Made by a program: the position numbers and the translations under genes. This document shows positions 55,073 to 55,634 of a stretch of 64,000 nucleotides of DNA, one piece after another; position 1 is the stretch's first letter; each line of letters opens with the position of its first letter. Under the pieces are notes generated by a model. It ran no database searches. It saw nothing but the letters and a program-made list of their open reading frames with translations, and was not told the DNA's origin. Source of the DNA: Mobula hypostoma (Eukaryota); the NCBI RefSeq assembly GCF_963921235.1, contig NC_086097.1:11594001-11658000 (forward strand), read 5' to 3'.

Positions 55073-55151
55073 CGGAGGGACAAAAGATAGTTGGTTGGAG
55101 GAACATAATGAAATGGTAAATGAAAAGAAGCACGATATATCCAAAGAAATT
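55073..55151 (-). CDS. Putative exon encoding a transmembrane-like segment (NFFGYIVLLFIYHFIMFLQPTIFCPS)
   Basis: ttgtag|AAT...CCG|gtgagt (consensus donor); 79 nt, phase 0 to 1. Confidence 0.68.
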
Positions 55152-55248
55152 CTACAATTGATGGGTTGAAAACATTATGATAAGTAAAATGCCAAGCATT
55201 TAAATCTGAGTTGAGTGAAATACCTATGGGCTATTTTACATGTCTCAC

Positions 55249-55288
55249 CCTGCAGTATTGCTGAATTACTTTCCGATTTCTTTGTGAC
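55249..55288 (-). CDS. Putative 40-nt exon (SQRNRKVIQQYCR)
   Basis: catttcctgctttag|G...AGG|gtgaga; phase 2 to 0; 97-nt intron to the next exon. Confidence 0.65.
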
Positions 55289-55388
55289 CTAAAGCAGGAA
55301 ATGAGGTAACGGGGTCTATTATCTCTGTTGTTAGACGTTTTGGTATTAACTCTGTCTGTAGAGTGGAATCTGATTTGGTTATGCTCAC

Positions 55389-55449
55389 CACTCAATAATC
55401 ATGTTTCCATCTTCATGTTGCACTTTGGAAATGATGTGAGGAGTGCCCT
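55389..55449 (-). CDS. Putative 61-nt exon (GTPHIISKVQHEDGNMIIEW)
   Basis: Donor GTG|gtgagc; phase 2 end matches the next exon; acceptor (atgaatag) is weak. Confidence 0.5.
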
Positions 55450-55583
55450 CTATTCATTGCTTTTAATTAGTGGAATAATTCTTCCTGTGGCTGGACTGTG
55501 AATGTGAATTCAATCAGAAGGCGTCTAAAACTCTTCTCATCAGCAAGTACAAGACAAGAGATTCCTCCATGGCATTTCATTAC

Positions 55584-55634
55584 TTGATTTATAAATTGAA
55601 TCAAATATAGTAGAATTCTGTTCTATGCGGTAAC
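55584..55634 (-). CDS. Putative 51-nt exon (YRIEQNSTIFDSIYKS)
   Basis: Strong acceptor tattttattcttgttttag|G; donor CAA|gtaatg; phase 1 to 1. Confidence 0.45.

Follow-up and report, generated by a model that had tools for sequence, protein, structure and literature searches.

Four short exon-like segments at the VRK1 end of the VRK1-BCL11B interval of Mobula hypostoma: a possible fragment of an unannotated membrane-protein gene

The stretch of DNA analyzed here, called the window below, comprises 64,000 nucleotides (C1:11,594,001-11,658,000) of the Mobula hypostoma genome (3.48 Gb, 200 contigs); positions are counted from its first nucleotide unless a contig is named. About 55% of a 264-kb region (the window plus 100 kb on each side) was masked by self-BLAST, and the long open reading frames (ORFs) of the window are presumably LINE-like. 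Two young elements on the minus strand, which we take by resemblance to be CR1/L2-type LINEs, lie at 46594-49739, with an 849-codon endonuclease-RT frame and a 203-codon frame upstream of it, and at 50777-52738, where the RT is split over two frames. Fragments on the plus strand at 37786-38313 and 44435-44956 presumably derive from Tc1/mariner-like transposases, and those at 3544-4110, 30649-31266, and 61712-62179 are assumed to be Penelope-type-like.

Flanked by repeats on both sides is an island that remained unmasked in the self-BLAST and matched only itself in the genome, in agreement with the original prediction of a TE-free island. The features that it contains or adjoins are the following:

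54992..55729, no strand: single-copy, repeat-free island, 738 nt, 36% GC, containing the exon cluster
55584..55634, minus strand: candidate exon 1 (51 nt), starting and ending in phase 1, with a single open frame
55389..55449, minus strand: candidate exon 2 (61 nt), starting in phase 1 and ending in phase 2, with a single open frame
55249..55288, minus strand: candidate exon 3 (40 nt), starting in phase 2 and ending in phase 0, encoding the R/K flank
55073..55151, minus strand: candidate exon 4 (79 nt), starting in phase 0 and ending in phase 1
55080..55136, minus strand: codons of the hydrophobic stretch, a candidate transmembrane helix of 19 residues
54586..55006, minus strand: putative 3' end, with weak acceptors at 55006 or 54977 and AATAAA at 54591

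The four minus-strand exons had been proposed with lengths of 51, 61, 40, and 79 nt and introns of 134, 100, and 97 nt, and all of these were found exactly as claimed: an AG precedes and a GT follows every exon, and the exons join in phase (1, 1, 2, 0, 1 along the cluster) into 231 nt; one of the three frames of this join is open, and its translation is the 76 residues of the original prediction. Their designation as micro-exons is looser, as the usual limit is about 51 nt; it holds for the exons of 40 and 51 nt and fails for those of 61 and 79 nt. According to a splice matrix that we approximated from textbook frequencies, exon 1 has a strong acceptor (4.2 bits, CTCAT branch point at -22) and a weak donor (0.4), while exon 2 has a weak acceptor at 55449 (-5.7 bits, CTAAT branch point at -18) and a GTGAG donor (4.3). 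Exon 3 is the top-scoring exon (3.8 + 4.5) and is open in two frames; exon 4, in which 72% of the nucleotides are pyrimidines and no frame contains a stop, has a strong GTGAG donor (6.6). Branch-point motifs are present upstream of all four acceptors. The choice of the exon 2 acceptor is uncertain: an alternative at 55422 is in frame, yields a 34-nt exon, and scores higher (-3.0), and further higher-scoring acceptors upstream (55484-55495) close the frame.

A hydrophobic helix preceded by basic residues had also been predicted, and this is borne out by a best 19-residue Kyte-Doolittle mean of 2.05, with the arginine and lysine residues located ahead of it in exon 3. Of 3000 random stop-free 76-mers, 4.1% attain the same mean. 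The cluster shares with the general class of tail-anchored and type II single-pass membrane proteins the basic residues directly before a single helix, near a possible C-terminus; it differs from them in that its known part amounts to 76 residues, with no start, verified end, domain, or family match. Beyond exon 4, the use of the acceptor at 55006 would produce a 66-nt intron and a stop after approximately four codons, whereas that at 54977 would produce a 95-nt intron and approximately 30 codons of a sense LINE-like tail, as we presume from ORF resemblance and repeat depth.

Kinase exons were detected on the plus strand 76-94 kb to the left of the window start, and for one of them the best match in the PDB was VRK1 (E 2.4e-17; VRK2, E 2.1e-11). 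The last exons of VRK1 were placed at C1:11.50-11.54 Mb on the plus strand, 57-94 kb to the left of the window start; one of these calls was confirmed against the PDB and the rest were made by eye, with the most distal (about 57 kb to the left) being uncertain. A BCL11-type finger lies at C1:14.63 Mb on the minus strand, and we call it BCL11B because of the human gene order, as given in the part of PMC7758212 that deals with this region. The cluster (11.65 Mb, minus strand) is thus situated at the VRK1 end of a 3-Mb VRK1-BCL11B interval, 3' of the VRK gene, convergent with it, and on the same strand as the BCL11-type gene. The order along C1 is GALC (4.7 Mb), VRK1 (11.5), the BCL11-type gene (14.6), and CATSPERB (15.9). 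The gene order of human 14q presumably differs from this one, implying inversions.

One rival explanation of the cluster is chance: within unique, AT-rich DNA, three GTGAG donors and usable AGs would happen to stand at exon-like spacing and would never be spliced; a pattern-seeking reader would then have picked it out from many windows. We regard this as quite possible, although short of probable. Some open four-exon chain was present in 162 of 170 control tiles and in 391 of 400 dinucleotide shuffles, so the existence of an in-phase join does not by itself point to a gene. With length ranges that were set after the chain had been seen, a frame-aware search of the island returned the eight originally predicted sites as the best chain (16.3 bits), a score reached by none of the 170 repeat-free tile-strands and by one of the 400 shuffles; no chain was found on the plus strand of the island. 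With wider length limits the in-frame acceptor at 55422 was preferred, and again none of the 170 tiles reached the score. Against these results, Markov simulations reached the score in 31 of 8033 and 7 of 5363 cases, and when introns were limited to 80-140 nt the best unique tile came to 16.0 against 16.3 for the cluster, with two of 710 tiles (repeats included) reaching the score. The chance per tile is accordingly about 0.001-0.004; since a window holds at least 20 unique tile-strands, this would amount to a few percent to approximately 10% per window, which is not negligible when many windows are scanned. The chain is therefore above chance for one tile and not clearly so for a genome scan. 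If it is due to chance, it still provides a useful calibration, showing that in-phase four-exon joins are nearly universal in AT-rich unique DNA.

Evidence against chance came from a search that ignored the reading frame: the best chain kept seven of the eight sites and scored 23.7 bits, compared with 17.5 for the best control (n = 169). Unmasked strand sequence totaling 239 kb contains 153 strong donors, of which the only triple with exon-like spacing belongs to this chain, and the introns of 97 and 100 nt are close to real short introns of this genome (82, 83, and 93 nt in FANCL). The open frame comes on top of this, with a probability of 0.035 given the eight fixed sites and of 0.037-0.084 if any exon 2 acceptor is allowed; the best frame-free chains of the controls were open in 4 of 169 cases.

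The frame-free search also bears on a further explanation, namely that the exons are real and non-coding, belonging to a spliced lncRNA or a 5' UTR in the BCL11B desert, with exon 2 using a stronger upstream acceptor and the open frame being incidental. In its favor, the best frame-free chains, in which the exon 2 acceptor is 55484, 55490, or 55495, have no open frame, the originally predicted chain ranks only 13th, and the composition gives no clear coding signal (see below). Moreover, according to the sections of PMC7758212 that concern it, the VRK1-BCL11B interval of mammals is a gene desert that contains a BCL11B enhancer and gives rise to lncRNAs including ThymoD. The cluster occupies the same intergenic interval as these ThymoD-type lncRNAs; it differs from them in having an open frame and in its place at the VRK1 end. 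An open four-exon join would, however, be only 4-8% likely given the other seven sites, and there was no Rfam match in 52000-64000. We consider a non-coding origin improbable.

The cluster was also compared with real genes of the same genome. The mean splice score per exon is 4.1-4.7 in the cluster, 4.6 in FANCL (six exons), 4.6 in CATSPERB, 5.4 in GALC, and 5.5 in TMEM249, where the exon boundaries of the last three genes were picked by script and a few may be off; by this measure, the sites of the cluster are as good as real ones. The GC content, in contrast, shows no lift in the exons of the cluster (0.355 vs. 0.362 in the flanks) and is not above that of its introns, whereas the exons of FANCL (0.424/0.348), VRK1 (0.412/0.283), CATSPERB (0.369/0.297), and GALC (0.427/0.294) exceed their flanks by 7-13 points; TMEM249 (0.491/0.475) shows little lift (2 points). 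The first codon position of the cluster contains only 0.14 G, which, like the absent GC lift, is what the chance explanation would lead one to expect. The residue composition scores -0.17, against -0.15 +/- 0.07 for random translation; the transmembrane exon of CATSPERB also scores -0.19, and this test is therefore weak.

CATSPERB and TMEM249 (CatSper theta), auxiliary subunits of CatSper encoded by multi-exon sperm membrane genes, resemble the cluster in their splice scores and AT-rich residue composition. CATSPERB even lies on the same contig, but at C1:15.94-15.97 Mb, where all five PF15149 matches fall and none at the locus; TMEM249 maps away from it, at C5:226.5 Mb, with PF15158 matches over the cut-off on C5 only and none of the seven matches at the locus. 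Both were rejected as identities of the cluster.

The protein had been described as unrecognized, and no tool that we used could assign it to a family. The joined 76-residue peptide was compared with this genome and with FANCL sequences only, and the large databases were searched with single-exon ORFs. For the ORFs of exons 1 and 4, no protein sharing three 5-mers was found (75-2000 aa, among 5.8 billion). As a positive control, a 50-residue FANCL exon, which offers 50 real residues compared with 17 and 26 for exons 1 and 4, retrieved 251 of 271 candidate proteins, with ray and shark sequences ranking first, and its identity to a protein labeled Mobula birostris FANCL was 100%. Hence no ray model of 75-2000 aa in the database seems to contain these two exons in this frame, although such a k-mer search would miss distant relatives. 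A phmmer search of 1.84 billion representatives yielded no credible match; two of its three matches were repeat-inflated short-motif matches, and the third, a protein of 6891 aa, came with no matched stretch. The Atlas gave nothing usable (best 0.77), no PDB match was obtained for exons 2 and 4, no Pfam match for the minus-strand exon ORFs, and none in metagenome contigs by a 23-nt exact scan. In the literature, we found no coding gene reported in this interval in sharks or rays (annotation tables in supplements could bear on this), nor a FANCL paralogue there.

Within the genome itself, neither DNA nor exon-peptide searches revealed a paralogue. For exons 1 and 2 the sole match was the exon itself, and none of the eight weak matches to the exon 4 ORF (E 0.2-4) continue into other exons. 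Partner exons were likewise not recognized, either by splice score in the flanks scanned (within 100 kb on each side) or by Pfam among 297 of 931 candidate minus-strand ORFs lying between 57 kb to the left and 100 kb to the right of the window. The six Pfam matches of these 297 ORFs at E<=0.01 were all under the curated cut-offs, and two of them were LINE endonuclease. A kinase-like ORF of 111 codons (21355-21687, minus strand) was dropped, its matches being E 0.004 in Pfam and E 0.13 at best in the PDB; it adjoins a repeat at about 22000-22475 and is probably chance or decayed transposon DNA. At 108590-108945 in window coordinates, 53 kb upstream of the cluster, a 2.9-kb unmasked island carries three exon-like segments on the minus strand (32, 33, and 47 nt) with two open pairs; their peptides look uninformative, and they could be due to chance. 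A scan of 108 kb revealed no unmasked CpG island on the upstream side of the cluster. In four of six listed sequencing runs over 52800-57400, whose kind was guessed and one of which was flagged as probably DNA, the repeats were covered, the bins at 55110-55417 were empty in all four, and slight cover appeared at 55418-55571 in one; no exon-exon joint was among the 15 joints listed of 399. These runs were weighed neither for nor against the cluster.

The lack of recognizable homologues and partners accords with chance, and the missing partner exons, together with the repeats that bound the island on both sides, would also fit an orphaned relic, the other parts of the gene having been lost or scattered by transposons, or a fragment carried in by a mobile element. 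The frame and sites are intact, however, and no source copy exists elsewhere in the genome by DNA or exon peptides; we consider this origin distinctly improbable.

A more specific origin is suggested by the position of the cluster and concerns FANCL, an E3 ligase with the Pfam domains PF18891 and PF11793. In the sister block, FANCL is located between VRK2 and BCL11A, according to the relevant part of PMC6906185. In the ray, FANCL lies at C22:59.65 Mb on the minus strand (exons 8-13 were mapped at C22:59,647,077-59,649,796), 2.0 Mb from a BCL11-type finger at C22:61.67 Mb, also minus; VRK2 itself was not located on C22 here. The exon 8 donor of this conserved gene is itself a very weak GT site (-4.6 bits). 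FANCL exons 9-12 start in phases 1, 1, 2, 0, and introns of 83 and 93 nt separate exons 9-11. The cluster could then be imagined as a FANCL ohnolog left by the genome duplications of vertebrates, in which the equivalents of exons 9-11 were kept and the RING exon was replaced by a membrane anchor. Relative to the BCL11 gene, it lies where FANCL does on the sister contig and is oriented alike; it also has similarly short exons with introns of 80-100 nt, the phases 1, 1, 2, 0 of FANCL introns 8-11, and, as in FANCL, a Trp codon split before Ser at the phase 2 junction.

The sequence comparison speaks against this kinship. A local alignment score of 25 was reached by 868 of 2000 shuffles; against a FANCL profile of 80 proteins (330-420 aa, among 120 listed), the peptide ranked 239 among itself and 500 shuffles, with an hhalign probability of 0.1, and no six-frame match under E 2.9 was found in the 264 kb. 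There is no detectable similarity to the UBC-like DRWD domains, and a RING with Cys/His ligands is absent, as exon 4 encodes a hydrophobic helix where FANCL has its RING, contains one Cys, and has no profile match; kinship was rejected on these grounds. Furthermore, the exon lengths differ (51/61/40/79 vs. 84/46/82/117), the fifth phase is mismatched, and, by the phase frequencies that we presume, a gene with 13 introns should match four phases in one register or another about once in seven. It is therefore very improbable that the cluster is a FANCL ohnolog. Equally remote is the wider proposal that the ray interval still carries a second child of the pre-duplication FANCL, membrane-anchored after loss of its RING ligase exon, whose sequence has diverged too far to be detected and whose position, strand, and four intron phases have been kept.

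The reading that we tentatively prefer, while holding it to be possible rather than probable, is that the cluster is a fragment of an unannotated gene for a single-pass membrane protein. From the observed sites, phases, open frame, hydropathy, single copy, and position we infer how its splicing, translation, topology, and tissue of expression might look. The four segments would be internal coding exons of a rapidly evolving multi-exon gene, either living or lost only recently, whose transcription on the minus strand runs toward the 3' end of VRK1. Its introns of about 100 nt may be spliced by intron definition, letting weak sites such as donor 1 and acceptor 2 work. A single transmembrane helix would be encoded by exon 4, and the cytosolic, basic segment before it by exon 3; given this flank, the positive-inside rule predicts that the N-terminus stays cytosolic. 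Should the transcript terminate with the acceptors located 66-95 nt downstream, a tail-anchored protein would result; should the phase 1 donor lead to a distant exon for a luminal domain, the product would be a type II membrane protein. Narrow expression (e.g., in testis) and fast divergence could account for the missing annotation. This coding-exon reading fits the splice anatomy and the open frame; no homologue, paralogue, partner exon, or spliced read was found that would independently support it. That an unrelated cartilaginous-fish gene resides inside the VRK1-BCL11B desert is conceivable, though doubtful.

Overall, the cluster is unproven as it stands and, if real, would be a new gene of an ordinary kind at a surprising address. 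It would represent a protein-coding gene that the searched protein models of rays and sharks lack, located within a regulatory desert that is known in mammals for its BCL11B enhancer and lncRNAs. Such a gene would show what once lay in the VRK1-BCL11B block and would offer a new membrane protein to study.
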